Notes: a model not told the origin generated them from the letters alone. DNA of 32,000 nucleotides from Crocosphaera chwakensis CCY0110 (GCF_000169335.1 NZ_AAXW01000021.1:35175-67174); one strand, 5' to 3'; positions 13,258 through 30,337 are shown, counted from the first letter of the stretch. Numbers and translations are program-made.

Positions 13258-13265
13258 GCTAGCGC
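13258..13265 (+). promoter_or_regulatory. Island motif GCTAGCGC, copy 1
   Basis: Exact 8-mer, intergenic, 32 nt before ATG 13298. Confidence 0.6.
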
Positions 13266-13297
13266 CGATAAGGTGAAAGCTATAGAGGTAACATTAT

Positions 13298-16200
13298 ATG
13301 AACACCGAACAGATGTCTTTATTCGGGTTGGTAGAATCCACTGCACCGACCCAGAAACCAAAGAAAGCCTCTCATAAAAGACGAAAACCTACGAAGCCTT
13401 CCTCTCATAAAAGTTCTTCACTCACCCAAGGTTCATTATTCAGTGGTCTATCTTTGGGTAGTCCAGTGATTGGGACAGGAACCTTACTAACTGTAGCCGA
13501 GAAGCTGCTTTCTTACCTGTCGATTAATCAGAAAATAACCTCAAGTCTCCTCAAACAAACCATGAACGAAGCTTTTGGCGGTACAGATAGCCAAGGGCGT
13601 TGGAACTGGAAACAAGCCTATAATGCTGTGGAATTATCCTTAGTCTTGTGGGTGAGAAAATACCACGGAACGCTCGCTGAACACCCAATGGTAGCCGTCA
13701 AAGAACTTATTGAGTTACAAACCCTATTACCGACTCATACTCTACGCTCTGAAGAATCGGTAAAACTTCAACAGTTCAGTACCCCTTTACCTTTAGCGTA
13801 TTTAGTGGGTGAAGCTGCTCAAATCACCTCTAAAGATGTAGTGTTAGAGCCAAGTGCAGGAACCGGCCTACTCGCTATTTGGCCTGAGATTAAAGGGGCA
13901 TCGCTGATTCTCAATGAAATTAGCGAAGATCGAATCGAATGCCTAAAGCAAGGCTTTTCACACAAAGTCTATAACTACAATGCAGAGCAAATCGACAATC
14001 TGCTCCCAACTCAGCATAAACCGACTGTCGTAGTTATGAACCCACCGTTTACCACCCATCTCCATAGCAAGAAGAAGGGGTGTAGTGCAGCTTTAGCTCA
14101 CATTCGTTCAGCATTGCACAGATTAAGTGCAGGAGGACGATTAGTTACACTAAGTTCTGATTCGTTCTCACCCAATAGCACAACATGGGGCGACGCGATC
14201 GCAGCGTTACCCGGTAAAGTCGTTTTCAGTGTTGGTATCGAAGGTAAGACCTACTACAAACATGGCACAACTATTGATACCAGACTTACGGTAATTGATA
14301 AAGTTGACGAGGCAGACTCTTACATTGTCGACAAATGCTTAAATCTCGATGAAATCGCTGACTTGATTGACACTAAAATCCCACCTCGACAAAAGGTTAA
14401 GAAGCATCAGTCATCAGTCGTAGTTCCTATCACAAAACCTAGCAAAAAGACTAAGAAAGTCAAAGAAGATACAAGGCCACAAGCAAAAGTATCTTTCGAT
14501 GATGTCATTACCGTTGATTACAACGTTATTGATTGGCGAGATGAGGGTGAGTACCTCAACGATGATGGGATCTATGAGCGTTATATGCCTCAAACCATCA
14601 ATATCAAAGCAGCTAAAGTTCATCCAACTAAACTCGTTGAATCAGCCGCAATGGCAGCGATCGCACCACCCACACCAACCTACAAACCTAAGCTACCAAA
14701 GGCGGTGATTGAGCAAGGCTTACTCTCTGATGCTCAATTAGAAAGTGTCATTTATGCAGGGAATAGCCATGAGCAATTCTTACCTGATTGGTTTATGTAT
14801 GATGCTGACCACGACACTTTAGAACGAGTCCCTGAAGGAACCAAAGAAGCTAAGCATTACCGCAAAGCATGGTTTAACGGAGACGGTACAGGGGTAGGAA
14901 AAGGACGCCAGTGTGCCGGGATTATCCTCGATAATTGGCTAAAAGGTCGCAGGAAAGCGGTGTGGATTTCCAAGAGTAACGCTTTACTTGAAGATGCTCG
15001 GAGAGACTGGAAAGCCCTTGGTGGTGATCCTGCTCAGGTAGTACCTCTATCCAAGTTCAAGCAAGGAGATCCCGTTGTTCTCAACGAAGGAATCCTCTTC
15101 TTGACCTATGCCACATTGAGAAGTCCCGCAAAAGCAAACAAATGTTCTCGTGTTGAGCAAATTATAGAGTGGCTTGGCGAAGACAGTGATAACGTTATTG
15201 TCTTTGATGAGTCTCATGCTATGGCCAATGCGGTAGCAGAATACGGCGAACGAGGTCTCAAAGCAGCCTCTCAACAGGGATTGGCAGGGTTACGTCTTCA
15301 ACGAGTCTTAGCCAATGCGAGGTTTGTCTTTGTATCAGCTACAGGCGCCAGTAAGTTAGAGAATCTTAGTTACTTAGAACGGTTAGGGCTCTGGAACTCA
15401 GAGATTTTGCCCTTTATCAACCGAGAAGATTTCTTATCCCAAGTAGCCGAGGGTGGGATTGCTGCTTTAGAAGTAGTAGCCCGCGACCTTAAGGCTATGG
15501 GTCTCTACTTAGCTCGTAGTGTGAGTTTTGATGGTGTTGAGTACGAAATCATTGAACACGAACTCAACGAGGCTCAAGTGGCGATGTACAACCGGTATGC
15601 CGACGCTTACCAGATTATCTATCAGAACATTGAGAAAGCCCTTGAGCTTACGGGAATCAGCAGCAAGTTCGGTAGTACAAATGGCAGGGCAAAATCCTCC
15701 GTCTATTCTCGGTTTGAAAGCACTAAACAACGATTCTTCGGTCATCTGATTACCTCGATTAAATGTCCGACTCTACTCAAACAGATAGAAGCGGATATGA
15801 AAGAGGGGAAAGCAGCCGTGATTCAACTGATTTCAACCGATGAAGCCCTTTTGAACAGACGACTAGACGAAATTCCAGTCAGTCAATGGAATGATATCAA
15901 CGTTGATATTACTCCACGAGAATACCTCTTTGATTATCTGATCAACGGATTCCCAATACATCAATATGAGAGCTTCACAGATGATAACGGCAATGAGCGT
16001 AGTCAACTTATGACCGATTCACTGGATAATCCTATACCCTGTCAAGAAGCATTACGTCAAAGGGATGCTCTCATCGAAGAACTCTCCTTGTTACCACCTT
16101 TGCCATCAGCATTAGACCAAATCATTAACCATTTTGGGTATGAAGCGGTGGCTGAAGTGACAGGACGCTCAAAGCGAATCATCCGAGTCACGAAAGAGGG

Positions 16201-17743
16201 TAGCGATCGCATGATGGTCGATAAACGGTCGAGCTCTGCAAACTTAGCAGAATCCCAGTTGTTCATGGATGACGAGAAGCAGATTCTTGTCTTCTCCCAG
16301 GCAGGAGGAACAGGTAGGTCGTACCACGCCAATAGAAGTTGCCAGAATCAACGCCCACGGGTGCATTATCTCTTAGAAGGCGGCTGGCAAGCTGATGTCG
16401 CTATACAGGGACTTGGGAGAACCAACCGCAGTAACCAAGCTCAACCTCCCTTATATCGTGTGATTTGCACCGACATCAAAGGGGAGAAACGCTTCACCAG
16501 CACTATCGCCAGACGGTTAGCTAGTTTAGGAGCGTTGACCAAAGGTGAACGCAAAACAGGCAATCAGGGACTCTTCCGAGAAGAGGATAACCTAGAGTCT
16601 GTTTATGCTAAACAGGCGTTACGGACATTGTACTTCAGCCTCTATAAAGGACTAGTTGAAGGTATGACTTTAGCGGAATTCGAGAGAATTTCAGGGTTAA
16701 ATCTCCTAACCAAAGAAGGAGATTTCAAAGCTGAACTTCCTCCCATGAAAACCTTCCTCAATCGAGTCTTAGCGATGCGGTTAGAGGATCAAGAAATCCT
16801 GTTTACCACGTTGGAGATGTGCATTAGTTCTGCCATTGAGAAAGCTAAGGAAGCAGGGATCTATGAAATGGGTGTCGAGACTATCAAAGCTGAAAAGCTA
16901 GAAGTGGTAAACCGACAACAACTCTATCAAGACCCTGTGACTGGAGGAACCAGTTACGCGGTTGAAATCCAGAAAACTGAACTGAATCGGATACTCAGCT
17001 TAGACGAGGCCATTAGATTAGGCAGTTATAGTGACACCTTCTTCGCTAAGAACCAAATGTCAAATCAAGTAGCAGTTGTCACTTCAACCACCAGCGTAGT
17101 TAACAAAGATGGTATTAGCGAACCGAGATTCAGCTTAACTCGTCCTTGTAACACTACCAAAATGAGACGTTGGGAATTCGACAACTCCTTATGGACTAAG
17201 GTTGATGCTGAAACATTCAAACAAGGGTGGGAACAACAGATTGCCCAAGAACCTGAATTCATCGAATCCACTTTCTACCTGATTACGGGTGTCCTCTTAC
17301 CGATTTGGAAAAGGCTTGACAATAACCAGATGCGAATATACCGCATTCACACCGAAGATGGTGAGCGGTTACTAGGTCGTGCTGTCAGCGAAAGCGCCAT
17401 GACTTACATTGCCAGAAGCTTTGAATTGAGCCATGAACGGACAATCGAGGATATCTACGAATCGGTGATGAACCAGGGAACAAAAGAATCCCTAACTGAG
17501 AAACTAGAGCTAAGAAAAGTGTTAGTCCGAGGGGATTACCGGCTAGAAATTGTAGGACATAACTCGACCATTGAATTGCAATGGCTCAAACAATTGGGAG
17601 TTCAAAGCGAATACGTTAGCCATAAACTCCGTGCCTTTGTACCTCTAGAAAACGCTATTGCCGTTCTCAAAACTATTCAAGAATCCTATCAAAGAAGCGA
17701 TCCGCAAAGCGGATCTCGCCAAAGGCGAGCGCGCTTTTCTTGA
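13298..17743 (+). CDS. Fusion protein: N6-adenine-type DNA methyltransferase domain plus strawberry-notch (Sno)-like DExH helicase
   Basis: 1481 aa with a basic, Ser-rich N-terminus. MTase motif I is VLEPSAGTG (aa ~182) and motif IV is NPPF (aa 248, nt 14039-14050). Helicase motif I is GDGTGVGKGRQ (aa ~528), motif II is FDESH (nt 15206-15217) and the motif VI-like segment is QAGGTGRSYHA / QGLGRTNRSNQ. Confidence 0.85.
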   Translation: MNTEQMSLFGLVESTAPTQKPKKASHKRRKPTKPSSHKSSSLTQGSLFSGLSLGSPVIGTGTLLTVAEKLLSYLSINQKITSSLLKQTMNEAFGGTDSQGRWNWKQAYNAVELSLVLWVRKYHGTLAEHPMVAVKELIELQTLLPTHTLRSEESVKLQQFSTPLPLAYLVGEAAQITSKDVVLEPSAGTGLLAIWPEIKGASLILNEISEDRIECLKQGFSHKVYNYNAEQIDNLLPTQHKPTVVVMNPPFTTHLHSKKKGCSAALAHIRSALHRLSAGGRLVTLSSDSFSPNSTTWGDAIAALPGKVVFSVGIEGKTYYKHGTTIDTRLTVIDKVDEADSYIVDKCLNLDEIADLIDTKIPPRQKVKKHQSSVVVPITKPSKKTKKVKEDTRPQAKVSFDDVITVDYNVIDWRDEGEYLNDDGIYERYMPQTINIKAAKVHPTKLVESAAMAAIAPPTPTYKPKLPKAVIEQGLLSDAQLESVIYAGNSHEQFLPDWFMYDADHDTLERVPEGTKEAKHYRKAWFNGDGTGVGKGRQCAGIILDNWLKGRRKAVWISKSNALLEDARRDWKALGGDPAQVVPLSKFKQGDPVVLNEGILFLTYATLRSPAKANKCSRVEQIIEWLGEDSDNVIVFDESHAMANAVAEYGERGLKAASQQGLAGLRLQRVLANARFVFVSATGASKLENLSYLERLGLWNSEILPFINREDFLSQVAEGGIAALEVVARDLKAMGLYLARSVSFDGVEYEIIEHELNEAQVAMYNRYADAYQIIYQNIEKALELTGISSKFGSTNGRAKSSVYSRFESTKQRFFGHLITSIKCPTLLKQIEADMKEGKAAVIQLISTDEALLNRRLDEIPVSQWNDINVDITPREYLFDYLINGFPIHQYESFTDDNGNERSQLMTDSLDNPIPCQEALRQRDALIEELSLLPPLPSALDQIINHFGYEAVAEVTGRSKRIIRVTKEGSDRMMVDKRSSSANLAESQLFMDDEKQILVFSQAGGTGRSYHANRSCQNQRPRVHYLLEGGWQADVAIQGLGRTNRSNQAQPPLYRVICTDIKGEKRFTSTIARRLASLGALTKGERKTGNQGLFREEDNLESVYAKQALRTLYFSLYKGLVEGMTLAEFERISGLNLLTKEGDFKAELPPMKTFLNRVLAMRLEDQEILFTTLEMCISSAIEKAKEAGIYEMGVETIKAEKLEVVNRQQLYQDPVTGGTSYAVEIQKTELNRILSLDEAIRLGSYSDTFFAKNQMSNQVAVVTSTTSVVNKDGISEPRFSLTRPCNTTKMRRWEFDNSLWTKVDAETFKQGWEQQIAQEPEFIESTFYLITGVLLPIWKRLDNNQMRIYRIHTEDGERLLGRAVSESAMTYIARSFELSHERTIEDIYESVMNQGTKESLTEKLELRKVLVRGDYRLEIVGHNSTIELQWLKQLGVQSEYVSHKLRAFVPLENAIAVLKTIQESYQRSDPQSGSRQRRARFS

Positions 17744-17749: not shown

Positions 17750-17789
17750 AGAACAGGCTACTTCGGTAGTCCCTGTTCTCTTTCTTTTT
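17750..17789 (+). terminator. Intrinsic terminator after the MTase-helicase gene
   Basis: The stem is GAACAGGCTAC-TTCG-GTAGTCCCTGTTC, followed by TCTTTCTTTTT. GCTAGCGC follows immediately. Confidence 0.7.
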
Positions 17790-17797
17790 GCTAGCGC
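17790..17797 (+). promoter_or_regulatory. Island motif GCTAGCGC, copy 2
   Basis: Exact 8-mer. It abuts the terminator T-tract and lies 36 nt before ATG 17834. Confidence 0.6.
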
Positions 17798-17833: not shown

Positions 17834-19009
17834 ATGGATATATCTTGCATTCCCACCGGGCTAATCAAAGCCTTAAGCCTAGCTAATAAAGTGATTCCTC
17901 ATAACCCAACCCACCTAATCCTACTCAATGTAATCCTCAAAGCTGAACCCGAAATCCTCAAAGTAGAGGCATTTAATGGGCAGATAGCAATGAGTTGGAC
18001 AGTGAGAGATGCTAATATCAACACCCCTGGCGAAGTGGCGGTAAATTGCAAAGATTTCCTCACCCTACTTAACACGCTTAAAGACGAGGTAGCGATTACA
18101 CTGTCCGCTGACGAAGAATATCTTCACTTGAAAAGTCAACAAGGAAAGGAGGCAAAATTTGCTAAAGGGGATATCGAAGAAATGCCTTGGATTGACTCCC
18201 TGACAGAAGAAGAAATCGAACAAGTCTCCATAGAAGCTGATGATCTAATCCAAGCAGTTGAAGAAACCAAATATGCTGTAGCAACCGAGATGGCCAAGGC
18301 TATTTTATGCGGTGTCTGTCTGAACTTCGATACCGACGAAGAAAACACGGTAGAATTTGCGGCGACGGATGGGCATCGATTAGCTAGAACAAGGGTATTG
18401 TACGAGCCTTCGGAGAATAATCCAGAAAATAAACTCGTCATGCCAACCGAAACCCTTACCTTAACAGCTTACGCGCTGAAACAGATGGAAACGAGTGAAG
18501 AAATTGCAGAGATGGTTACAATCAGCTTTGATGAAAATAAAATTCAAGTGGATTTTTCAGAAGGGTTTATCCGAAGTCGTAAATTAGACGGGAAGTACCC
18601 AGACTACGAAATGTTGATCAACGGTGATGATTTTAGCCTGGACTGTACCTTTAACCGCAAGCAACTCCTTGAGGCTCTGAAGTTCATTGATACGTTCGCA
18701 GTTGGTAAAGATTCCTTATGTTTCATCGATTTCGACCCAGAAGAGAAGAAATGCACCCTTCGCTCAAAGGAAAACACGACGGGGAGTGCCGAAGATACAT
18801 TAGAAGTAGAAGATATCAATGGGCAAGCACAGTCTTTAGGCTTTAACTCTAACTACCTGAAACAGTGCCTCAAAGCGATGCCCGGAGATACTGTAACTAT
18901 GGAAATCACGGAAACAACGGGCGATCAACCAGGTCCAGTGTTCATATCGCCCTTAGAGGAATACAAAACCTTTGGGTTAGTCATGCCAATCCAAATTAAC
19001 GAAAGCTAG
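17834..19009 (+). CDS. dnaN: DNA polymerase III beta sliding clamp homologue (island-encoded)
   Basis: 391 aa. The N-terminus is L.KAL..A.KVIP.....ILLNVILKAE...L.VEAFNGQIAM. The protein also contains ATDGHRLA, GKYPDYEMLI and GFNSNYL..CLKAM, ending ...PVFISP....GLVMPI. This is the diagnostic DnaN pattern. Confidence 0.85.
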   Translation: MDISCIPTGLIKALSLANKVIPHNPTHLILLNVILKAEPEILKVEAFNGQIAMSWTVRDANINTPGEVAVNCKDFLTLLNTLKDEVAITLSADEEYLHLKSQQGKEAKFAKGDIEEMPWIDSLTEEEIEQVSIEADDLIQAVEETKYAVATEMAKAILCGVCLNFDTDEENTVEFAATDGHRLARTRVLYEPSENNPENKLVMPTETLTLTAYALKQMETSEEIAEMVTISFDENKIQVDFSEGFIRSRKLDGKYPDYEMLINGDDFSLDCTFNRKQLLEALKFIDTFAVGKDSLCFIDFDPEEKKCTLRSKENTTGSAEDTLEVEDINGQAQSLGFNSNYLKQCLKAMPGDTVTMEITETTGDQPGPVFISPLEEYKTFGLVMPIQINES

Positions 19010-19061: not shown

Positions 19062-19412
19062 ATGTTCGACAATTTAAGCGAAAAACAGTGCGACCTGATA
19101 ATATCGGGTATAGTGTCTATTGCCATATTGACATTGATTACTGTAAGCACCATAAAGGCGAATGAACGAGAAAAACGGCTTAAAAATGAATCCTATATGA
19201 TAGATCTGCCAGAAAAAACGTTGCTGATTAACGGACTGCAAAAAGAAGAAATTGATCAGTTAAACAGCGATGCTTTGTTAGGTTTAGGACCGACGGGGAT
19301 AATTATATCATGTGGTTCACAAGAATTCCGATTCGGACGAGCTACAGACTACTATCTCCAAAAAGTTCCATCCAATTATCAGATACCAAACAATGTAATC
19401 GATTGTCGTTGA
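19062..19412 (+). CDS. Hypothetical membrane-anchored protein
   Basis: 116 aa. An AGGAG SD lies about 8 nt upstream, and there is an N-terminal TM helix (IISGIVSIAILTLITVSTI). Confidence 0.55.
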   Translation: MFDNLSEKQCDLIISGIVSIAILTLITVSTIKANEREKRLKNESYMIDLPEKTLLINGLQKEEIDQLNSDALLGLGPTGIIISCGSQEFRFGRATDYYLQKVPSNYQIPNNVIDCR

Positions 19413-19573: not shown

Positions 19574-19921
19574 TTACTGCTGATAACCTAAAGTAAATAA
19601 GACAATACTTTCCAGTTGATTAATAGTGTTTAAACTTAATTTTCCCAATTTACGGCGTAAACGAGTTTTATCTAAGACTCTTAATTGATGACATAAAGCA
19701 ACTGAATCTTGATTTAAACCCCCTTCATTTTGAGGAATGAATAAACAACTAGGTAAAGAACTTCGTCTTAAATTAGTAGTTAAAGGAATGCTAATAATGG
19801 TTGTTGTAAATTGAGAGATGGTATTCTCTTGAAAGATAATTACTGGACGTATTCCTGCTTGTTCAGATCCTTGTGTGGGGTCAAGAGTAGCGACCCAAAT
19901 TTCTCCTCGTTCAATCTTCAT
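19574..19921 (-). CDS. mazF: MazF/PemK-family endoribonuclease toxin
   Basis: 115 aa. It starts MKIERGEIWVATLDPTQGSEQAGIRPVIIFQ, the PemK signature. It overlaps the upstream antitoxin gene by 4 nt (ATGA). Confidence 0.85.
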   Translation of the reverse strand: MKIERGEIWVATLDPTQGSEQAGIRPVIIFQENTISQFTTTIISIPLTTNLRRSSLPSCLFIPQNEGGLNQDSVALCHQLRVLDKTRLRRKLGKLSLNTINQLESIVLFTLGYQQ

Positions 19922-20151
19922 CGTTGATCTTCTTGGTTTAATAAGTCAGCATATTCATTGATTCCTGCTTCAGCAAGTTGACGGTCTTCTTCAGCAAATT
20001 CTTGATAAAGTTTGGCTATATTATCTATATTCTTTAGAGGTTTAGTTAAATTTTCTCTGAATTTTAGAAAGGTAATGAAATCAGCAACTTGGTTAAGTTG
20101 TTCTTGGTTTAGGTGATTAAGTTGTTGGTTTATTTGTTCTTGAGTAGCCAT
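19918..20151 (-). CDS. Cognate antitoxin (family not assigned)
   Basis: 77-aa acidic protein, translationally coupled to and upstream of the mazF-like gene. Confidence 0.65.
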   Translation of the reverse strand: MATQEQINQQLNHLNQEQLNQVADFITFLKFRENLTKPLKNIDNIAKLYQEFAEEDRQLAEAGINEYADLLNQEDQR

Positions 20152-20352: not shown

Positions 20353-20387
20353 CGAGACAAGCAAATGCTCGTCTCTTTCTTTTTTTT
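20353..20387 (+). terminator. Intrinsic-terminator-like hairpin plus T-tract
   Basis: GAGACAAGC-AAAT-GCTCGTCTC followed by TTTCTTTTTTTT. No + strand gene ends directly upstream, so it may be orphaned by the mazEF/RM-remnant insertion. Confidence 0.5.
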
Positions 20388-20393: not shown

Positions 20394-20401
20394 GCTAGCG
20401 C
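20394..20401 (+). promoter_or_regulatory. Island motif GCTAGCGC, copy 3
   Basis: Exact 8-mer, 6 nt after the T-tract and 36 nt before ATG 20438. Confidence 0.6.
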
Positions 20402-20437: not shown

Positions 20438-20647
20438 ATGCACTTCACTGGCAAAAGTCTTAGCAAAGAACACATCGAATTGGCAGGGATTGACCTGCCT
20501 CATATATCAGATTGTCTTCTCAAAGAAATCCGTTCAGAAATCAGAGCAAAACTAAAACGAGCCTCGATAACCAACGAAGAAGACTTCCAGGAAATTGTCA
20601 CGGCAACGGTAGCAGAAATAATGCCCCTGTGGGTTTACGAGGACTAA
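20438..20647 (+). CDS. Small hypothetical protein
   Basis: The track ORF starts at TTG 20405, only 4 nt after the motif. The internal ATG at 20438 restores the common motif-to-start spacing. 69 aa. Confidence 0.5.
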   Translation: MHFTGKSLSKEHIELAGIDLPHISDCLLKEIRSEIRAKLKRASITNEEDFQEIVTATVAEIMPLWVYED

Positions 20648-20695
20648 GCTCGAAGCTAGCTCGATATTATTGCAGAATTTTACTCAGTAACGCTT

Positions 20696-21195: not shown

Positions 21196-21771
21196 ATGGA
21201 AAATAGCTTAATTCTAGAAATCAACGAAGAAAACGCCTACGTCAAAATCACAGAAAGTTATTCAGCAGCCTACATCAATGTGAATCGACACACCATACGA
21301 CTGAATCTCTCTACTGCTGATTTTGAAGTAGGGGCTATAGTCAGAAGGGCTGGCCCTAATTCAACAATTATCGGGAGTTCAAAGATCGATTTCTTCTTAG
21401 CAGATAGTGGGGCTTTACTCGTCGGGAATGGCGGCGATAACAATTTGCAAGTAGCGGGGAATGGAGCCGAAAATTGCATCATTCTCGGTGGAACGGGGAA
21501 CGACACCATCAAAGCACTCTCCACAGCAAAAACGACTGTGCCTTCCTGTGTTCTTAGCGGGGGTGAAGGCAGTGATACTTTTTTCGCAGTTGGCATGAAA
21601 ATATTAGTGACAGATTTCGAGAAAGGCGATCGCATTTCCATTGGAGACCCCAATGTACGGCAATTTCTCAACGACCAGGGTTTAATAATCAAGACTGAAC
21701 AAACCGAGGCATTAATTTTAGAACGATTCGAGCCTCTTACTTTTGTGGAAGGAACCTATTTAGGTTTCTAG
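21196..21771 (+). CDS. RTX-like (hemolysin-type calcium-binding repeat) protein, paralogue 1
   Basis: GGxGxDxUx-type nonapeptides: GNGGDNNLQ, GGTGNDTIK and GGEGSDTFF. The C-terminal motif is VTDFEKGDRISIG. Confidence 0.65.
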   Translation: MENSLILEINEENAYVKITESYSAAYINVNRHTIRLNLSTADFEVGAIVRRAGPNSTIIGSSKIDFFLADSGALLVGNGGDNNLQVAGNGAENCIILGGTGNDTIKALSTAKTTVPSCVLSGGEGSDTFFAVGMKILVTDFEKGDRISIGDPNVRQFLNDQGLIIKTEQTEALILERFEPLTFVEGTYLGF

Positions 21772-21779: not shown

Positions 21780-21787
21780 GCTAGCGC
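21780..21787 (+). promoter_or_regulatory. Island motif GCTAGCGC, copy 4
   Basis: Exact 8-mer, 8 nt after stop 21771 and 47 nt before ATG 21835. Confidence 0.55.
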
Positions 21788-21834: not shown

Positions 21835-22407
21835 ATGAATTTACAAATTACAAGCCTCAATGAAGGTGTGTTTACCCCAGTTTTAGGTACTTGGGAGACG
21901 ATTGAAGTTGATGCCAGAGGGCTGACGAGCTACTACGAGTTCGGCAACGCCAATGTCGGGGTTCAGACACGCGTTCCTAACGCCGGTCGTTTCTCCTACT
22001 TAGGAGGGAGTAACGCCAGAGACATCTTATCGGGACAAGAGGGTTCGTGGATTCTCGGTCGTGATGGCGATGATGTCCTCACTACTTATTCGGCACCTGA
22101 TGATAGTCCAATTCGTTCTGCCTTATACGGTGGAGATGGCAACGACCAAATGACCGCACTGTTCACCGATGCTGTGTTTACTGGAGGTACTGGCTCAGAC
22201 CAGTTCAGAGTCTTAAACGCCGATGTTGTCATTACTGACTTCGCCGACAACGAAGATAGCCTCTGGGTATTGGGTAGTAACCAAGTATCACAGATTCAAA
22301 CTGATTTCGGGTTAGTCCTGGATAATGGAGCTTCCCAGATTCAACTATTAGGAGTTACCGATTACCTTACTCAAGTACAGAGTGGCGGTAGCAGCGTATT
22401 TGTCTAA
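21835..22407 (+). CDS. RTX-like calcium-binding repeat protein, paralogue 2
   Basis: Repeats GRDGDDVLT, GGDGNDQMT and GGTGSDQFR, plus ITDFADNEDSLWVLG. The track start TTG 21796 is less likely than ATG 21835. Confidence 0.65.
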   Translation: MNLQITSLNEGVFTPVLGTWETIEVDARGLTSYYEFGNANVGVQTRVPNAGRFSYLGGSNARDILSGQEGSWILGRDGDDVLTTYSAPDDSPIRSALYGGDGNDQMTALFTDAVFTGGTGSDQFRVLNADVVITDFADNEDSLWVLGSNQVSQIQTDFGLVLDNGASQIQLLGVTDYLTQVQSGGSSVFV

Positions 22408-23075: not shown

Positions 23076-23083
23076 GCTAGCGC
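23076..23083 (+). promoter_or_regulatory. Island motif GCTAGCGC, copy 5
   Basis: Exact 8-mer, 44 nt before ATG 23128. Confidence 0.55.
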
Positions 23084-23127: not shown

Positions 23128-23340
23128 ATGGATCAATCGCTTACTTTATTTCGCTGTTTTTTTTCCTGTGTGATAGGAATCTCTATAGTAAAAGATGTGA
23201 CAACAAATCAATTCGGAGACATTGCAGCACACATAGCGATAATTATCTTTGCCTTTTCTTGGTGGGCACTTCACGTCCTGATAACGATTCCACTGTGCCA
23301 AAAACTGATTAGGAAGCATTCTGCTCCTAACGAAAAGTAA
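23128..23340 (+). CDS. Small hydrophobic membrane protein
   Basis: 70 aa with two hydrophobic stretches. Confidence 0.5.
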   Translation: MDQSLTLFRCFFSCVIGISIVKDVTTNQFGDIAAHIAIIIFAFSWWALHVLITIPLCQKLIRKHSAPNEK

Positions 23341-23406: not shown

Positions 23407-23414
23407 GCTAGCGC
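23407..23414 (+). promoter_or_regulatory. Island motif GCTAGCGC, copy 6
   Basis: Exact 8-mer, 36 nt before ATG 23451. Confidence 0.6.
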
Positions 23415-23450: not shown

Positions 23451-23813
23451 ATGCCAACAGTTAATCTCAAAAACTTCATCATTATTTCTCTTGCAGATAC
23501 TGCAAGACGAGCCGGATTCGGCGATATGCCGGCTACGACAGATTATCAAAAGAAGAAACAGTCCCTTCAGGAACGTAACATATTAAAACGCTTACTAGAG
23601 ATGGTTAAAAATCGTAAGCCAAGCAAGATAGTTGAGGTAAACGACCTTTATCTATCCCCGCAATTTACCATGTTAATTGCGGATGTTTATAGTCAGATAG
23701 AAGGATACAGCAACGATGTCTATTTCTGTCAGAACCTCGCTGAATGCGAAAACCGACTTTCCTTTAATGGAGACATAGAGGCTCTATATAAACAGGTTCT
23801 AATCCACCTGTAA
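23451..23813 (+). CDS. Hypothetical protein
   Basis: 120 aa from ATG 23451. The track start TTG 23427 lies 12 nt after the motif. A GGGAG SD-like sequence lies 12 nt upstream of the ATG. Confidence 0.5.
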   Translation: MPTVNLKNFIIISLADTARRAGFGDMPATTDYQKKKQSLQERNILKRLLEMVKNRKPSKIVEVNDLYLSPQFTMLIADVYSQIEGYSNDVYFCQNLAECENRLSFNGDIEALYKQVLIHL

Positions 23814-23840
23814 ACCTTACTAGACATGGATTTGCACTAC

Positions 23841-23886
23841 CCGCAGCAACTACTATTTTGGTTATAAATTATAGCCCCTGCTGCGG
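23841..23886 (+). repeat. 46-nt inverted-repeat element, copy A
   Basis: CCGCAGCA-N30-TGCTGCGG, 27 nt after stop 23813. Confidence 0.8.
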
Positions 23887-23949
23887 ATCGATAACTGGTG
23901 TTTTCTACTCTTACATTTATTATAATGTTCTCAAGCATTATTTTGAATT

Positions 23950-24783
23950 ATGAAACTATGGACTATTATTAAACGCTTTTTACATCTAGAACCCTGCAAG
24001 GTTCTAGATGATAAGGAAGATACTTCGTATTTAGCTCTGTACCATCGAGGAGTAACCCTCTTTGAATCAGAAAGCTACAAAGAAGCCCTTGAGATTTTCA
24101 ACACCCTTCTTGAAACTTATCCTAACGAAGAAAGAATCTGGTTTAGCAAAGCCCTTACCCTTTACGAATTAGAAAACTACGAAGAAAGCATACTTGCTTA
24201 CGATGCCTTGCTGAACATCAACCCCATCCACGAAGAAGCATGGAACAACAGGGGATATGCGTTATCTCTTCTAAGACGCTATCGAGAAGCTATCCTATCT
24301 TACAATAAAGCGCTAGAGATTAATCCCAATTGTGACAAGGCTTTATTCAATATGGCATTAGCTTACCATCACTTATCTAATTACCAAAAGGCTGTCAATT
24401 GCTATAGTCGTTATGTTGAGATGATTCCAGATGTAGGAGCAGCTTGGAACAATAGAGGTTATGATCTTCTTCGACTAAAGCGGTATCATGAGGCTATTTT
24501 ATCTTACAACAAAGCCATTGAATTAATACCCAATTCCCATGAACCGTTTCTGAATAAAGCCTTGGCTCTACATTTTCTAGGTAAGCACGAAGAAGCCTTA
24601 CTCTTTTGCGATAAAGGTCTAGCAATATGTCCTAACTACGCCCAAGCTTGGTACAATCGAGGCATCTTTCTACATCATCTGAATCGACATAAAGAAGCTG
24701 TTTTTTCGTACAATAAAGCGTTAGCACTAGAGCCAGAAAACGAAGATGCTCAAATAAACAGAGACATCGACTATACTCTGTAA
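23950..24783 (+). CDS. Tetratricopeptide-repeat (TPR) protein
   Basis: 277 aa. About seven 34-aa repeats show the W..G/A..Y..A...Y..AL...P pattern, for example EAWNNRGYALSLLRRYREAILSYNKALEINPN. Confidence 0.8.
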   Translation: MKLWTIIKRFLHLEPCKVLDDKEDTSYLALYHRGVTLFESESYKEALEIFNTLLETYPNEERIWFSKALTLYELENYEESILAYDALLNINPIHEEAWNNRGYALSLLRRYREAILSYNKALEINPNCDKALFNMALAYHHLSNYQKAVNCYSRYVEMIPDVGAAWNNRGYDLLRLKRYHEAILSYNKAIELIPNSHEPFLNKALALHFLGKHEEALLFCDKGLAICPNYAQAWYNRGIFLHHLNRHKEAVFSYNKALALEPENEDAQINRDIDYTL

Positions 24784-24810
24784 CCATTATCCTATCTGGG
24801 TTTTACCCAC

Positions 24811-24856
24811 CCGCAGCAACTGCTATTTCGGCTATAGTTTACGGACTCTGCTGCGG
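24811..24856 (+). repeat. 46-nt inverted-repeat element, copy B
   Basis: CCGCAGCA-N30-TGCTGCGG, 27 nt after stop 24783. The flanks are homologous to copy A. The variant motif ACTAGCGT follows at 24864-24871. Confidence 0.8.
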
Positions 24857-24900
24857 ATCACCAACTAGCGTTTATTAAGGGGCTGTTTATCATTATAGAA

Positions 24901-25229
24901 ATGCCCCAACAACTTAGCCTATTGCAAGATCCAGAAATCCCAGAAATCATAGACGTCTTATTAAATCGAGAAGACTGCGTTTTGGCCGTCAGCATATCTG
25001 CAGGAAAAGACAGTCAGGCTATGCTTAACTGGCTGGCAGATCAACGAAAACGCCGAGGATGGCGTTGTCAAGTCCTAGCGATTCATGCAGATTAGCTGAC
25101 CTCAATGATTTGACCAATGCGATCGCTTACAATAAAAAGGTCTATGGCGAACTCGTAGAACTTGAAAAAGAGTCGGGCTGGACATTTCAGCAAAACCGAG
25201 CATTAAGGTCACTCACTGATATTAAATAA
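24901..25229 (+). pseudogene. PAPS-reductase-like (PP-loop ATPase) gene with an internal deletion and frameshift
   Basis: The N-terminal 64 aa contain the PP-loop SISAGKDS and end at TAG 25093-25095. A different frame (25098-25229) reads DLNDLTNAIAYNKKVYGELVELEKESGWTFQQNRALRSLTDIK*, which looks like a C-terminal remnant. The central part of the family fold is missing. Confidence 0.55.
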
Positions 25230-25702: not shown

Positions 25703-25725
25703 AAGACCTACGGGTCTTTTTTTTT
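25703..25725 (+). terminator. Intrinsic terminator
   Basis: AAGACC-TACG-GGTCTT followed by a T-tract. GCTAGCGC follows immediately. Confidence 0.75.
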
Positions 25726-25733
25726 GCTAGCGC
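25726..25733 (+). promoter_or_regulatory. Island motif GCTAGCGC, copy 7
   Basis: Exact 8-mer. It abuts the terminator T-tract and lies 34 nt before ATG 25768. Confidence 0.6.
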
Positions 25734-26220: not shown

Positions 26221-26296
26221 AACTAACCCTTGTCGCTAGAGCGTGTTCTCTTGACTACAATTTCTAAGAATAAACAAGGAACCCCCAAAGTCGAAC

Positions 26297-26524: not shown

Positions 26525-26532
26525 GCTAGCGC
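26525..26532 (+). promoter_or_regulatory. Island motif GCTAGCGC, copy 8
   Basis: Exact 8-mer within the palindromic CGCTAGCG, 46 nt before ATG 26579. Confidence 0.55.
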
Positions 26533-26578
26533 TCGTTAGGGGGAATAAATTGCCAAACGAGTAAAGGACTGTAAACAA

Positions 26579-26989: not shown

Positions 26990-27042
26990 CACTTCCTAGA
27001 GAGAACGACCTTTATACCAGCAGGATGATAGCAGAGTCTATC

Positions 27043-27050
27043 GCTAGCGC
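27043..27050 (+). promoter_or_regulatory. Island motif GCTAGCGC, copy 9
   Basis: Exact 8-mer, followed by GGATT as in copy 10, 38 nt before ATG 27089. Confidence 0.6.
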
Positions 27051-27088
27051 GGATTCTATTAGAAAACAAAATTCGAGGAACATTCACA

Positions 27089-27277
27089 ATGAACACTAAT
27101 ACAGAATATTTCTATGACAGTTTCGCTCAACCTTTTGAATGGGACGAACACGGCGCTATGGCAGTCTATCGAGAAACTGATATCGCTTTTGAAGAAGCAC
27201 TAGAAAGCTGGTGTGAATCAGATGAAACAACAGAACCCACCGATCTCGATAAAGAAATAGCCCACCCACCATTTTAA
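27089..27277 (+). CDS. Small acidic hypothetical protein
   Basis: 62 aa, rich in Asp and Glu. A GAGGA SD lies 10 nt upstream. Confidence 0.55.
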   Translation: MNTNTEYFYDSFAQPFEWDEHGAMAVYRETDIAFEEALESWCESDETTEPTDLDKEIAHPPF

Positions 27278-27285
27278 GGCAAAAA

Positions 27286-27314
27286 AGGAAGAGAAACGCC
27301 TCTTCCTTTTTTTT
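27286..27314 (+). terminator. Intrinsic terminator
   Basis: AGGAAGAG-AAACGC-CTCTTCCT followed by T8. Confidence 0.8.
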
Positions 27315-27315
27315 A

Positions 27316-27323
27316 GCTAGCGC
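27316..27323 (+). promoter_or_regulatory. Island motif GCTAGCGC, copy 10
   Basis: Exact 8-mer, 1 nt after the T-tract and 42 nt before ATG 27366 (nrdB). Confidence 0.6.
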
Positions 27324-27365
27324 GGATTAAAAGAACAATTAGTAAAAATTTTACTCATAAAACTA

Positions 27366-28409
27366 ATGACCTTCACCGAAATAAAACCAAGTCCAATCTT
27401 CAACCCTACCGGAAAGGACAACAAAGAAAATAGACACCTCTGGGGCGGTGACACCACCAACGTCATCAACCTTAATGAAACCCGTTACGGATGGGCCCGG
27501 TCTATTTATCAAACTATGAGGGAATCCTTCTGGGTCCCTCAGCGAACCGACCTGTCCCAAGATAAATTAGATTACGCTAACCTCATTCCAGGTGAACGTA
27601 GAGCGTTGAAGGGTATTCTAAGTTACCTCAATTTCCTAGACTCGGTACAAGTCGCAAACATCCCCGAACTCAGCCGGTATATCACAGCGCCGGAAGCTAG
27701 GATGTGCCTTGCCGAGCAAACATCACAAGAAGCGATGCACGGGGAGACTTATCAGTACATTACTGAGAGCATAATCCCAGAAAATGAGCAGCATGAAGTT
27801 TACGACTTCTGGAAGCAGGATCTTTTACTCCATGAGAGATGTGAATTTATCGCCGGTTATTACCAAAACCTTGCTAATAACCCCACCGGAGAAAACTATT
27901 ATATGGCGCTGATTGGAGACTATCTCCTAGAAGGATTGCTATTCTATCAAGGCTTCTTGTTCTTCTACAATCTTGCCTCCAGTCAACGGCTTGCGGGCTG
28001 TGCCAAACTCATCAAGCAAATCAACATGGATGAATTGACTCATGTGAGCTTATACCAAAAGCTTATCACAGAGGCTACGACAAAGTTCTCCTATTCTGAG
28101 GATGAAATCACAGAGTTATTCCATACAACGGTTGAACGGGAGATTGAGTGGACTAACCACATCTTCGATGGACAAATTCTAGGGGTTAGCAAAGCAAGTA
28201 CCGAAGCTTATACGAAGTATTTAGCTAACTTACGCCTAAAAGCGATCGGTATCCCTGCCATTTACCCCAAAATAGAGAATCCTTATGCCCATTTAGACTG
28301 GGCTGATTTCAAAGGAATCGGCAAATCAAAGGCTGCTTTCTTTGAAACAGAGGTCACAGGTTACGCCCAACCTACTGCCGTCAAGGGGTGGGACAAACTC
28401 AGGGTATGA
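27366..28409 (+). CDS. nrdB: Ribonucleotide reductase class I small (R2) subunit
   Basis: 347 aa. The di-metal ligand pattern is LNFLDSV (Asp), EAMHGETY (E-x-x-H, with the radical Tyr 4 residues later), LLEGLLFY (Glu) and MDELTHV (E-x-x-H). Confidence 0.88.
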   Translation: MTFTEIKPSPIFNPTGKDNKENRHLWGGDTTNVINLNETRYGWARSIYQTMRESFWVPQRTDLSQDKLDYANLIPGERRALKGILSYLNFLDSVQVANIPELSRYITAPEARMCLAEQTSQEAMHGETYQYITESIIPENEQHEVYDFWKQDLLLHERCEFIAGYYQNLANNPTGENYYMALIGDYLLEGLLFYQGFLFFYNLASSQRLAGCAKLIKQINMDELTHVSLYQKLITEATTKFSYSEDEITELFHTTVEREIEWTNHIFDGQILGVSKASTEAYTKYLANLRLKAIGIPAIYPKIENPYAHLDWADFKGIGKSKAAFFETEVTGYAQPTAVKGWDKLRV

Positions 28410-28424
28410 CTGGCTTTGAGCCTT

Positions 28425-28470
28425 CCGCAGCAAGTCCAATATTTACTATAGATAATTGAGGTTGCTGCGG
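28425..28470 (+). repeat. 46-nt inverted-repeat element, copy C
   Basis: CCGCAGCA(A)-N-(T)TGCTGCGG, 15 nt after the nrdB stop. Confidence 0.8.
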
Positions 28471-28524
28471 ATCTTTTAGGAATTAGCGTCCATTGTATTC
28501 GACGTTTATTGATGGACGAAAGTA

Positions 28525-28590
28525 ATGGCTCAAGTTGAATGGCTAGAAACCATACTCTCGGAGTTAGCCACTGTGATATCAAAAAATTAG
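28525..28590 (+). CDS. Candidate 21-aa micro-ORF (or cassette remnant)
   Basis: MAQVEWLETILSELATVISKN*. The degenerate motif TTAGCGTC (28483-28490) lies 34 nt upstream, which is the canonical spacing. A 19-bp perfect hairpin follows directly. Confidence 0.2.
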   Translation: MAQVEWLETILSELATVISKN

Positions 28591-28591
28591 C

Positions 28592-28639
28592 AATAGGCAT
28601 CATAAAGAGAGGCTCGGTCTTCTCTTTATGATGCCTATT
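28592..28639 (+). other. Long perfect hairpin (19-bp stem, 10-nt loop) without a T-tract
   Basis: AATAGGCATCATAAAGAGA-GGCTCGGTCT-TCTCTTTATGATGCCTATT. It occupies the position taken by intrinsic terminators in front of modules E to G. Confidence 0.6.
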
Positions 28640-28773
28640 CATCGTCGAAATCTAACACAAAAAAATAGCTAAGTTTACGGCATTATAAATCAAGCTCTAT
28701 TCCACTCTGGATAAGGATTATAACCTTCCGCAGCAGTGACTATTTTTCTTATATAAAATCGTGGTTGCTGCGG
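28638..28773 (+). repeat. 136-nt island module, copy D (leader plus 46-nt hairpin at 28728-28773)
   Basis: TTCATCGTCGAAATCTAACAC...CTGGATAAGGATTATAACCTT followed by CCGCAGCA-N30-TGCTGCGG. The degenerate motif GCTAGTGC lies 18 nt later (28792-28799). The downstream ORF has decayed. Confidence 0.8.
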
Positions 28774-28906
28774 GTAAACTTCGGGCTGTAGGCTAGTGCT
28801 TAGAATGAAGATGCTTACACCCAATAGTAGAACAAATGGGCTAACGAATATCGTGATCTCCATTTAAAAATACTAAAAACTCTTCCCTAAGATAAACCTC
28901 CCAAAA

Positions 28907-28933
28907 AGAGAAGACATAGCTTCTCTTTTTTTT
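28907..28933 (+). terminator. Intrinsic terminator
   Basis: AGAGAAG-ACATAG-CTTCTCT followed by T8. It is near-identical to terminator 30143-30169 apart from loop differences. Confidence 0.75.
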
Positions 28934-28938
28934 ACCGA

Positions 28939-29074
28939 ATCATCGTCGAAATCTAGCACGAAAAAATGGCTAAGTTTACGGCATTATAAATCAAGCTCTA
29001 TTCTAGTCTGGATAAGGATTGTAACCATCCGCAGCCATAGCTATTTTTCTTATAGATAATAGAGGTTGCTGCGG
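28939..29074 (+). repeat. 136-nt island module, copy E (hairpin at 29029-29074)
   Basis: Same leader as copy D. The hairpin is CCGCAGCC-N30-TGCTGCGG, with one arm mismatch. GCTAGCGC follows 17 nt later. Confidence 0.8.
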
Positions 29075-29091
29075 ATGATAATCAATTTTCC

Positions 29092-29099
29092 GCTAGCGC
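29092..29099 (+). promoter_or_regulatory. Island motif GCTAGCGC, copy 11
   Basis: Exact 8-mer, 17 nt after hairpin E and 33 nt before ATG 29133. Confidence 0.6.
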
Positions 29100-29132
29100 A
29101 ATTAAATATGATGTTCCAAACCTACAGCACAA

Positions 29133-29366
29133 ATGAACAACTACGAAAAACTTCGAGATTTAGTCGGTAATTGCAATCGCCTAGAAGAACAATTCTTCAA
29201 CCGTCTAATTCAGGATGATGTGCCTCTAGAACTCAAACAAATTTGGAATAAGTGGTCGGCGGCGCAAGCCGCGCATCGAGATTTTCAAGGACAGATGCTA
29301 GGGACGAATCTCCACGTAAATGAAAATCAAAAAGAGACGAATAAATATACTACTAATTTACTTTAA
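29133..29366 (+). CDS. Small hypothetical protein, paralogue 1 of a duplicated cassette gene
   Basis: 77 aa, MNNYEKLRDLVGNCNRLEEQFFNRLIQDDVPLELKQIWNKWSAA.... It is about 80% identical over the first ~57 residues (hand alignment) to ORF 29907-30119. Confidence 0.6.
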   Translation: MNNYEKLRDLVGNCNRLEEQFFNRLIQDDVPLELKQIWNKWSAAQAAHRDFQGQMLGTNLHVNENQKETNKYTTNLL

Positions 29367-29413
29367 ACTAGCGTTTATTCATCATGAAAAAAATCGCCGT
29401 TTAAATTAGAAAT

Positions 29414-29668: not shown

Positions 29669-29682
29669 TTCAATAATCTAAT

Positions 29683-29708
29683 CCTAGCAAACGCTAGGTT
29701 TTTTTTTT
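29683..29708 (+). terminator. Intrinsic terminator
   Basis: CCTAGC-AAAC-GCTAGG followed by T10. Confidence 0.75.
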
Positions 29709-29713
29709 GCAAA

Positions 29714-29849
29714 ATCATCGTCGAAATCCAGCACGAAAAACTGGCTAAGTTTAGGGCATTATGAAACAGCCTCTATCTCTGTCTGGATAAGGATTATAAC
29801 CTTCCGCAGCAGTGACTATTTTTCTTATACAAAATTGTGGTTGCTGCGG
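29714..29849 (+). repeat. 136-nt island module, copy F (hairpin at 29804-29849)
   Basis: ATCATCGTCGAAATCCAGCACGAAAAACTGGCTAAGTTTAGGGC... followed by CCGCAGCA-N30-TGCTGCGG. Confidence 0.8.
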
Positions 29850-29866
29850 ATGATAATCGATTTTCC

Positions 29867-29874
29867 GCTAGCGC
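29867..29874 (+). promoter_or_regulatory. Island motif GCTAGCGC, copy 12
   Basis: Exact 8-mer, 17 nt after hairpin F and 32 nt before ATG 29907. Confidence 0.6.
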
Positions 29875-29906
29875 ATCTGAGGATGATATTCAAAACCATA
29901 ACGCAC

Positions 29907-30119
29907 ATGAGCAACTACGAAAAACTTCGAGATTTAGTCAGTGAGTGCAATCGTCTAGAGGAAAATTTCTTCGACCGTCTAATTCAAGAAGACGTACCCC
30001 TAGAACTGAAAATGATTTGGAACGAGTGGTCGGCGGCGCGAACTAAGCATAGAACCTTTCAAGGACAAATGCTTGGGTTCAACATCCTAGACACCGAAAC
30101 TCACAACGAAGACGAATAA
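29907..30119 (+). CDS. Small hypothetical protein, paralogue 2 of the duplicated cassette gene
   Basis: 70 aa from ATG 29907 (MSNYEKLRDLVSECNRLEENFF...). The track ORF start at 29835 would read through hairpin F and the motif, so it is rejected. Confidence 0.6.
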   Translation: MSNYEKLRDLVSECNRLEENFFDRLIQEDVPLELKMIWNEWSAARTKHRTFQGQMLGFNILDTETHNEDE

Positions 30120-30142
30120 TAAAGAGATATTCTTTTAGAAAT

Positions 30143-30169
30143 GAGAAGCTATGTCTTCTCTTTTTTTTT
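30143..30169 (+). terminator. Intrinsic terminator
   Basis: GAGAAG-CTATGT-CTTCTC followed by T9. Confidence 0.75.
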
Positions 30170-30174
30170 GCAAA

Positions 30175-30310
30175 ATCATCGTCGAAATCCAGCACGAAAA
30201 AATGGCTAAGTTCAGGGCATTACAAACCAAGCTCTATTCTAGTCTGGATGAGGGTTATAACCTTCCGCAGCAATTACTATTTTTCTTATATAAAATCGTG
30301 GTTGCTGCGG
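30175..30310 (+). repeat. 136-nt island module, copy G (hairpin at 30265-30310)
   Basis: Same leader plus CCGCAGCA-N30-TGCTGCGG, directly upstream of nrdA. Confidence 0.8.
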
Positions 30311-30329
30311 GTAAAAATTGATTTAAAAA

Positions 30330-30337
30330 GCTAGCGC
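30330..30337 (+). promoter_or_regulatory. Island motif GCTAGCGC, copy 13
   Basis: Exact 8-mer, 19 nt after hairpin G and 33 nt before ATG 30371 (nrdA). Confidence 0.6.

Follow-up and report, generated by a model that had tools for sequence, protein, structure and literature searches.

We analysed a window of 32 kb (32,000 nucleotides, nt) of DNA from Crocosphaera chwakensis CCY0110 (GCF_000169335.1, NZ_AAXW01000021.1:35175-67174), which consists of a chromosomal part of 13 kb and an island of about 19 kb, with particular attention to the 8-mer GCTAGCGC, called the box when exact, that stands in front of many island genes. Positions 1-12,700 hold ordinary chromosomal genes, namely hemB, a porin, znuABC and an IS200/IS605 pair. 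One island protein is a methylase fused to a strawberry-notch/SNF2-type helicase (1481 amino acids, aa; 13298-17743; Pfam AAA_34, Helicase_C_4 and MTS; 100% identical to a known C. chwakensis protein), and the island also encodes a divergent sliding clamp of its own, DnaN (17834-19009), together with the small subunit (NrdB, 27366-28409) and the large subunit (NrdA, 30371-32000, running past the window end) of ribonucleotide reductase, all on the + strand. The other island genes comprise a MazF pair on the - strand, a TPR protein and many small open reading frames (ORFs) with no family match.

The pairing of methylase and SNF2 helicase is that of the DarB-like module, which Iyer et al. assigned to anti-restriction during the entry of phages or conjugative elements (PMC5512222). 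Homologues of the helicase were found on 712 plasmids, 363 of which are typed as conjugative. Cyanobacterial plasmids with a relaxase and type IV secretion share a backbone of dnaN, dnaX, holA, a family-A polymerase and a stand-alone homologue of the methylase domain; Planktothrix p1 and pANACY.02 carry this backbone plus relaxase, VirB10 and VirD4, and in the related locus L013 (related loci carry L numbers) a family-A polymerase gene lies directly upstream of the helicase. Because its gene set, with the methylase-helicase, dnaN, nrdAB and toxin-antitoxin genes, matches that of cyanobacterial conjugative plasmids, we read the island, from its sequence, as an integrated copy or remnant of such an element. 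No transfer genes, relaxase or oriT were found inside the window, and no near-identical DNA was found in phage and plasmid collections. As argued below, GCTAGCGC is very probably a shared control site of the promoters of related cyanobacterial conjugative elements.

Exact GCTAGCGC occurs 13 times in the window, and all 13 copies are on the + strand, compared with a mean of 0.38 copies and a maximum of 2 in 100 shuffles preserving dinucleotides. Non-coding DNA makes up 22% of the island and holds every copy; none was found in coding sequence or in the chromosomal 13 kb, and the reverse complement does not occur in the window. From the last base of the box to the ATG the gap is 32-47 nt (40-55 nt from the motif start). 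These results bear out the initial annotation, which had reported 13 intergenic + strand copies at this distance and their absence in both orientations from the host-like part and from island coding sequences. Around 16 of the 22 + strand genes are preceded by the 13 exact and three to five degenerate boxes, and five, at 19062, 21196, 22498, 22808 and 25242, have none. The flanks of the 13 copies have nothing in common beyond the 8-mer, save for three copies inside a longer repeat, so the boxes are not simply duplicated promoters. The distance from the box to the upstream terminator is variable (0-30 nt), while that to the downstream ATG is constrained, and the box therefore belongs to the downstream gene. 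The hexamer GCTAGC was found 14 times in 32 kb, namely in the 13 boxes and in a one-mismatch copy, GCTAGCTC, at 20655. Outside these 14 boxes this hexamer, which is the NheI site, is absent from the 32 kb, though chance expects 4.6 occurrences, and this hints that it is avoided elsewhere in the window, perhaps via a host restriction system.

The boxes, all on the + strand, are distributed as follows. The methylase-helicase gene has its box at 13258-13265, 32 nt ahead of ATG 13298. Four further boxes lie at terminators, as had been proposed from the first inspection: the dnaN box (17790-17797; ATG 17834, gap 36 nt) comes immediately after the T-run of the intrinsic terminator of the helicase gene (17756-17789), whose stem shows compensatory changes in relatives; the box of a 150-aa ORF (25726-25733; ATG 25768, gap 34 nt) likewise abuts an intrinsic terminator (25703-25725); and terminator-like hairpins with a T-run, read from the sequence, lie on the + strand at 20354-20387, 6 nt ahead of the box of a 69-aa ORF (20394-20401; ATG 20438, gap 36 nt), and at 27285-27315, abutting the nrdB box (27316-27323; ATG 27366, gap 42 nt), where the T-run is 1 nt upstream. 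Other boxes precede a 190-aa ORF (21780-21787; ATG 21835, gap 47 nt), a possible 70-aa ORF (23076-23083; ATG 23128, gap 44 nt), a 120-aa ORF (23407-23414; ATG 23451, gap 36 nt), a 136-aa ORF (26525-26532; ATG 26579, gap 46 nt) and an acidic 62-aa ORF (27043-27050; ATG 27089, gap 38 nt). The remaining three exact boxes have a hairpin repeat upstream, 17 nt away from the boxes of a 77-aa ORF (29092-29099; ATG 29133, gap 33 nt) and its 70-aa paralogue (29867-29874; ATG 29907, gap 32 nt), and 19 nt away from that of nrdA (30330-30337; ATG 30371, gap 33 nt).

Several degenerate copies had also been proposed in the initial annotation. Those with one mismatch are GCTAGAGC at 26235-26242, without a convincing gene downstream, and GCTAGTGC at 28792-28799, which has a hairpin repeat upstream and belongs to an empty unit with no gene downstream; with two mismatches, ACTAGCGT stands both at 24864-24871, between a hairpin repeat and a PAPS-reductase-like fragment (ATG 24901, gap 29 nt), and at 29367-29374, ahead of an 84-aa ORF (ATG 29414, gap 39 nt). 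By contrast, ACTGGTGT at 23894 and TTAGCGTC at 28483 have three mismatches and are credible only because the same hairpin repeat precedes them as precedes true copies. The list was also incomplete, since it overlooked GCTAGCTC at 20655-20662, which lies 33 nt ahead of ATG 20696 of a 146-aa membrane ORF. The preferred internal ATG starts at 20438, 21835 and 23451 are also those chosen when genes were called independently on a Logan contig covering this DNA, and the choice of 29907 over a TTG extension is supported by the paralogue pair 29133/29907. For ORF 23128-23340 the box was confirmed, but the ORF itself is absent from that gene call.

The hairpin repeat, CCGCAGCA-N30-TGCTGCGG, has an 8-bp stem and a 30-nt loop and is present in seven copies, at 23841-23886 (then the weak box ACTGGTGT), 24811-24856, 28425-28470 and 28728-28773 (both empty units), 29029-29074 (one stem mismatch), 29804-29849 and 30265-30310. 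It showed no covariation and no Rfam match, and it may be a terminator substitute or an RNA 3' stabiliser. The hairpin, invariant and with a loop reading CTATTTTTCTTATAnAAAT, is contained in each member of a repeat family of about 130 nt (23800-23950, 24770-24900, 28384-28520, 28687-28830, 28988-29135, 29763-29909 and 30224-30373), and an exact or decayed box lies 7-19 nt downstream of every repeat hairpin. Two of these units (28384-28990) have no gene downstream, and the Logan assembly of the same DNA is broken at the repeats. The tandem paralogues at 29133-29366 and 29907-30119, each with its own hairpin repeat and box, encode small helical proteins of 77 and 70 aa with the N-terminus M-N/S-NYEKLRDLV and no family match.

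The initial annotation had considered the motif island-specific. Within the window this is correct, but the motif is not unique to the island and is present in related elements; homologous elements were examined for conservation, and the conservation found was strong. A T-run together with GCTAGCGCAAAG is invariant upstream of dnaN in five loci (DnaN 97, 65, 44 and 43% identical to that of the window), while the remaining spacer has diverged and the pairing of the terminator stem is kept via compensatory changes. In front of the helicase gene the exact box was also seen in L013 (68% identity), L040/L041 and L043 (54-55%; 54% and 49% G+C) and L045, which are elements of 43-54% G+C, in each case 29-34 nt ahead of the true ATG. 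Among the exact-box relatives protein identity goes down to 43-55% and G+C ranges from 40 to 54%, with diverged flanking bases. L040 and L043 have four exact copies each, all on the gene strand and 18-39 nt ahead of a start. In L046, a metagenomic relative, GCTA[T/A]CGC was found five times on the + strand, four of them 36-43 nt before starts, including that of the helicase, where the variant is GCTAACGC. The Planktothrix agardhii plasmid p1 has nine copies of GCTANCGC on the + strand and one on the - strand, and five of them lie 33-42 nt ahead of annotated starts, dnaN included. Thus, in the metagenomic relative and in p1 the variant GCTA[A/T/C]CGC takes the same position as the box. The box is a family-wide signal of cyanobacterial conjugative-type elements, with the variants GCTANCGC. 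Alphaproteobacterial loci (L003, L005-L007) showed scattered single copies on either strand and no gene-oriented set, and the box is absent from the Gloeothece verrucosa locus and from the IMG/VR helicase relative L011. A scan of IMG/VR for TTTTGCTAGCGCAAAG returned 18 contigs with a single copy each, which was taken as chance. At 12721-12800 of L046 a terminator-like hairpin lies between the variant GCTAACGC and the next gene, across a gap of 71 nt, and this stretch could be a small RNA or an attenuator.

A further form of the site may exist. In Nostocales plasmids, L034, L045 and pP742402, near-palindromes of the form GCGC-N3/4-GCGC were found 30-43 nt before ssb, the helicase and other genes, and one of them, GCGCTATCGCGC upstream of ssb, contains GCTATCGC. 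They may be a sister form of the GCTANCGC box, and their near-palindromic arms point to protein recognition of double-stranded DNA. Such sites were located in L050 (31491, 32430, 32526 and 33946), L051 (36364, 37357 and 37846), L034 (1518), L045 (8802) and L032 (18504). L050 holds six copies in 41 kb, compared with about 0.1 expected by a hand estimate from base composition.

The sequence downstream of the box was then compared with shuffled sequences, taking xAnnnT (often GAnAAT) as a -10-like hexamer. Such a hexamer begins 11-15 nt past the box, that is, after a spacer of 10-14 nt, in 16 of 19 non-redundant sites, and only 3 of 3000 shuffles, corrected for the scan over all offsets, reached that value. 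With the window of offsets preset, the result was replicated at 13 of 17 boxes of other elements (35 of 5000 shuffles), the peak falling at the same offset. Typical hexamers are GAAAAT, GACAAT, GATAAT and GATATT. No -10-like signal was found upstream of the box, and in several cases only a terminator lies there. Matches to the sigma-70-type consensus promoter are not enriched in the island, and no TTGACA-like -35 hexamer is present 17±1 bp ahead of the -10 hexamer, the region being occupied by the box, with T-runs or hairpins directly upstream. The predicted position of the box is about -33 to -24, with predicted starts about 23-27 nt past the box and leaders of about 10-25 nt. Because the -10-like hexamer is downstream of the box, the box would lie upstream of the predicted transcription start, in the -35 region. 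This departs from the earlier suggestion that the motif sits at the 5' end of the transcript or within the 5' untranslated region. As for the related remark that there is no room for a standard promoter, it is right for the DNA ahead of the motif; the remaining promoter parts appear to lie on its downstream side. Three other arrangements were rejected: a sigma-54 type promoter, as there is no GG at -24 (cyanobacteria are not known to have sigma-54); an extended -10, whose preceding T is not conserved; and a conserved single A 12 nt past the box as the start site, which was not significant on non-redundant sites (698 of 5000 shuffles).

These results slightly favour the reading in which GCTAGCGC is the -35-region recognition box of element-specific promoters, bound by a dedicated regulator, with the predicted start downstream. 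Each island gene or short operon would then be its own transcription unit, the preceding gene ending in a terminator or conserved hairpin, and the order would be terminator or hairpin, box, spacer of 10-14 nt, weak -10-like hexamer and predicted start. A sequence-specific factor of this element family would bind the box on double-stranded DNA and would switch the whole establishment and replication set together, including the methylase-helicase, dnaN, nrdAB and many small ORFs. It might be an activator or a sigma-like specificity factor that recruits the host RNA polymerase, as at PhoB boxes, T4 MotA boxes and NtcA-type promoters. Among the four roles proposed in the initial annotation, a promoter box read by an element-specific factor or the operator of a global regulator fit best, and an RNA-processing site or a signal on single-stranded DNA is less parsimonious. 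Positive control seems somewhat better suited than simple repression, because the orientation of the box is fixed in every element and the box takes the place of the -35 hexamer; fixed orientation is unexpected for a purely steric repressor on an asymmetric site, and hence the lean towards an activator or sigma-like factor. Repression stays a serious option, given the near-palindromic relatives and the precedent of Reg576 (PMC6294495). Since the elements vary in their box (G or A/T/C as its fifth base, or GCGC arms) but keep a sigma-70-like -10 hexamer, the reader of the box is probably encoded by the element and co-evolves with it, rather than being a host sigma factor.

Several results weigh against a dedicated regulator at a -35-region box. 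No candidate regulator was found, as the small island proteins have no Pfam, PHROG or PDB match to DNA-binding families, and a cognate regulator was not recognisable in the 19-kb island, which extends past the window, or in the related contigs. The helicase is the sole protein common to all helicase-anchored relatives; an all-against-all comparison of the related loci gave only backbone replication and partition genes in common, and the Planktothrix and Nostocales plasmids share with the island only the stand-alone methyltransferase homologous to the N-terminal domain of the helicase. The presence of the box did not co-vary with any helicase segment (the methylase and C-terminal regions were tested), and the helicase tree places the box carriers in two clades, among which a non-carrier is nested. 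For a dimeric regulator, one asymmetric 8-mer would be an unusual site, and what links GCTANCGC to GCGC-N3/4-GCGC is position, gene type and one hybrid site. As for the geometry, the -10-like signal is weak, the first T being missing in most hexamers. In addition, up to 60% of box-less plasmid genes, compared with 81% of box genes, have xAnnnT in the region of about -18 to -30 relative to the ATG, so part of this signal is generic. At 13258, 25726, L040 7920 and L043 14408, moreover, the predicted start falls in or just before a clear Shine-Dalgarno sequence.

The position of those Shine-Dalgarno sequences bears on a promoter of a different kind, in which the 8-mer alone would be the whole promoter for non-canonical machinery, such as a minimal sigma like gp55 of T4, for which a single 8-bp element suffices and no -35 is needed, or an element-encoded RNA polymerase, with the start a few to about 12 nt past the box. 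The leaders, then 20-40 nt long, would keep the Shine-Dalgarno sequences that the -35-box model clips. Such a promoter would also agree with the exact word, its fixed orientation, the terminators directly upstream, the frequent A or G 11-12 nt past the box and the sliding clamp or clamp-loader subunits that the elements encode, a parallel to the clamp-activated late transcription of T4. We nevertheless consider it rather unlikely, as the column of frequent A was not significant (698 of 5000 shuffles), the G+C-rich box does not resemble elements that have to melt, neither the window nor any related locus showed a sigma-like or RNA-polymerase gene, and the replicated -10-like hexamer downstream suits the host polymerase better. 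Another idea is that cyanobacterial conjugative elements have a private transcription system whose specificity depends on the box alone, which would then be no ordinary operator. Its reader might be the methylase-helicase itself, the one protein common to the helicase-anchored relatives, as a sequence-targeted activator or epigenetic switch, or an unrecognised minimal sigma acting with the element's own sliding clamp, in analogy to T4 late transcription; with these two candidates taken together, the idea is decidedly doubtful. A role in RNA is unlikely as well. The box would then act as GCUAGCGC within long read-through transcripts, as a processing site or a protein-binding site, where a protein defines 5' ends, stabilises the downstream mRNA or boosts translation, and the upstream hairpins would be 3' stabilisers. 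This would account for the strict strand specificity, the fixed distance to the ATG, the layout of hairpin, motif and gene and the lack of a good Shine-Dalgarno sequence at many box genes. Yet the first box (13258) has no island gene upstream to transcribe it, several boxes follow strong, compensatorily conserved terminators, so that read-through would have to be routine, and a site 32-47 nt ahead of the AUG lies beyond the footprint of the ribosome; the near-palindromes that take this position in other plasmids suggest that double-stranded DNA is recognised, and there is no Rfam match.

Three further explanations concern the DNA itself; like the self-sufficient promoter and the RNA role, each accounts for less than the favoured reading. 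The box might be the target of the element's adenine methyltransferase (the N-terminal domain of the helicase or the stand-alone homologue), being unmethylated on entry to a new cell and methylated later, so that methylation switches the promoters. One-strand methylases typically recognise asymmetric words of 6-8 bp, all these elements carry the methylase domain, fused or free, in their backbone, and the helicase gene is the one most consistently preceded by a box. Against this, the helicase segments are no more similar among box carriers than in box-less relatives, the carriers do not form one clade, and such methylases are thought to act broadly in anti-restriction (PMC5512222), which makes a methylation switch quite improbable in our estimation. 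Reading of the box could also take place on the single strand that enters by conjugation, where it would be a priming site or, with the adjacent hairpins, a single-strand promoter. All boxes are indeed on one strand of a unidirectional gene block, as in plasmid leading regions (PMC11541004), and hairpins often lie ahead of them. But the strand bias is a trivial result of how the genes are oriented, no hairpin lies near about half of the boxes, the hairpin stems lack -35 and -10 sequences, unlike Frpo, priming would not require a constant distance to the start codon, and no relaxase or oriT is in the window; we see very little chance for it. Even less is given to the box as the crossover core of a cassette-type recombination that shuffles modules of box, gene and terminator. 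Close relatives do differ sharply in gene content right at box-bounded units, and tandem duplicated and empty units lie at 28.4-30.3 kb. However, conserved flanking arms and an inverse-core partner are both missing (0 copies of the reverse complement), a recombinase gene is absent from the window, the fixed distance to start codons is left unexplained, and the box is retained at orthologous genes of deeply diverged elements, as befits a regulatory site.

The favoured reading, a regulator-bound box in the -35 region, can be compared with known systems, and repeated regulatory words before plasmid establishment genes are already known. On the Bacillus pumilus plasmid p576, the word TTATCCC, target of the plasmid-encoded regulator Reg576, is present in 13 intergenic copies before four promoters of establishment genes, including an anti-restriction gene, and their expression is coordinated after transfer (PMC6294495). 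The likeness lies in a short exact word that is intergenic and ahead of establishment genes, with 13 copies in each case. The p576 sites differ in being paired, in both orientations and flanking canonical -35/-10 sequences, with a known ribbon-helix-helix repressor, whereas each promoter here has one asymmetric 8-mer, always oriented the same way and at the -35 position. On RK2 (IncP), KorB and KorA recognise the OB and OA operators, palindromes of 12-13 bp, and the CUP elements of pKM101 (IncN) are hundreds of bp long. They resemble the present case in that one sequence stands before many operons and joins replication, maintenance and leading-region genes into one regulon, but OB, OA and CUP all differ from an asymmetric 8-mer whose distance and orientation relative to the start codon are fixed. 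Like the operators of plasmid global regulators, the box is a site repeated in several promoter regions, but it is neither symmetric nor paired and keeps to one orientation. Related cyanobacterial plasmids do encode ParB-family proteins.

Activator boxes that replace the -35 hexamer are found in T4 middle promoters (the MotA box about 12 bp upstream of the -10), in the pho boxes of PhoB and in NtcA-dependent cyanobacterial promoters. Their specific box, spacer of about 10-14 bp, sigma-70-type -10 (here -10-like), missing -35 hexamer and fixed orientation are all matched here; the sequence is another, no MotA, AsiA, PhoB or NtcA homologue is implicated, and NtcA sites are palindromic and centred further upstream. 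T4 late promoters carry TATAAATA, which is read by gp55 and activated by the sliding clamp. There too a single near-invariant 8-bp word marks genes, dozens of them in T4, and the element here encodes a sliding clamp; the T4 word is A+T-rich and lies at -10, whereas the box is 75% G+C and apparently at about -30, and no homologue of gp55 or gp33 was found in Pfam and PHROG scans of the island proteins. The Frpo/ssi sites are long imperfect hairpins whose stem recreates -35 and -10 boxes (PMC11541004), whereas the hairpins here are terminators or have an 8-bp stem with a 30-nt loop, lack -35/-10 sequences and are missing from about half of the boxes. An integron attC site was rejected, as the reverse complement of the box has 0 copies and the window contains no integrase. 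HIP1 (GCGATCGC) of cyanobacterial genomes (PMC4390886, PMC5861425) is likewise a G+C-rich octamer, highly over-represented in the same window. It differs in being a palindrome found mostly within genes and in both the chromosomal part and the island, whereas the box is asymmetric, intergenic, gene-oriented and confined to the element; an iterated oligomer of the HIP1, Chi or KOPS type was rejected, as there are 0 boxes in coding sequence and 0 in the chromosomal 13 kb. Between 2979 and 31212 of the window HIP1 has 15 copies compared with 0.08 expected, 12 of them in the island and mostly within genes, and this abundance indicates that the island is compositionally at home in a cyanobacterium and is not a recent import from another phylum.

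In the literature searched, no description of the box, its distribution across the family or its geometry (asymmetric 8-mer, -35 position, fixed orientation) was found; searching for the 8-mer gave only cloning primers, and GCTAGC is not mentioned in the papers on cyanobacterial methylation. If the favoured reading is true, the conjugative plasmids and integrated elements of a cyanobacterial family that spans Chroococcales, Oscillatoriales and Nostocales have a compact code in common: GCTANCGC, about 35-50 nt ahead of the ATG, marks their establishment and replication genes, those of the anti-restriction methylase-helicase, clamp, clamp loader, ssb and ribonucleotide reductase. In annotation, it could serve to delimit such elements in genomes, to correct start codons and to pick out small ORFs of the same programme as candidate anti-defence genes. 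The box would also define a regulon and a regulator to be sought by phylogenetic profiling or pull-down, and the establishment of cyanobacterial plasmids in new hosts would become directly testable. Few regulated promoters are available for cyanobacteria, so that an orthogonal 8-bp promoter element and the factor that reads it would be of use in engineering. Should the box instead belong to a private transcription system, the element would have a host-independent, all-or-none gene-expression programme on entering a new cell.

Some further features of the island and its surroundings were noted. The MazF/antitoxin pair (19574-20151, - strand) is replaced by HicA/HicB at 5412-5848 of L008, where DnaN is 97% identical, which is a swap of toxin-antitoxin cassettes at one position. 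Two neighbouring acidic ORFs of about 190 aa (21196-21771 and 21835-22407) contain GGxGxD-like repeats (GGTGNDT, GGEGSDTF, GGDGNDQ and GGTGSDQF) that resemble calcium-binding RTX motifs and are not recognised by Pfam. At 24901-25229, a 64-aa ORF matches only the start of PAPS-reductase/PP-loop enzymes and is followed by an out-of-frame 56-aa ORF; this is probably a decayed gene, still preceded by a decayed box. A protein search with the island NrdA (30371-32000) returned only chromosomal cyanobacterial homologues and no full-length identical protein; it shares only 57-60% identity with chromosomal NrdA proteins from Microcystis, Geminocystis, Crocosphaera and Xenococcaceae and is therefore a long-separated extra copy. 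The 62-aa protein behind the box at 27043 (27089-27277) is very acidic, with 17 D+E, 2 K+R and a pI of 4.1; no sequence match was found for it, and its composition is like that of DNA-mimic anti-restriction proteins. In the chromosomal part, the IS200/IS605 pair at 6599-8334 consists of a Y1 transposase and a TnpB/Cas12f-like protein.

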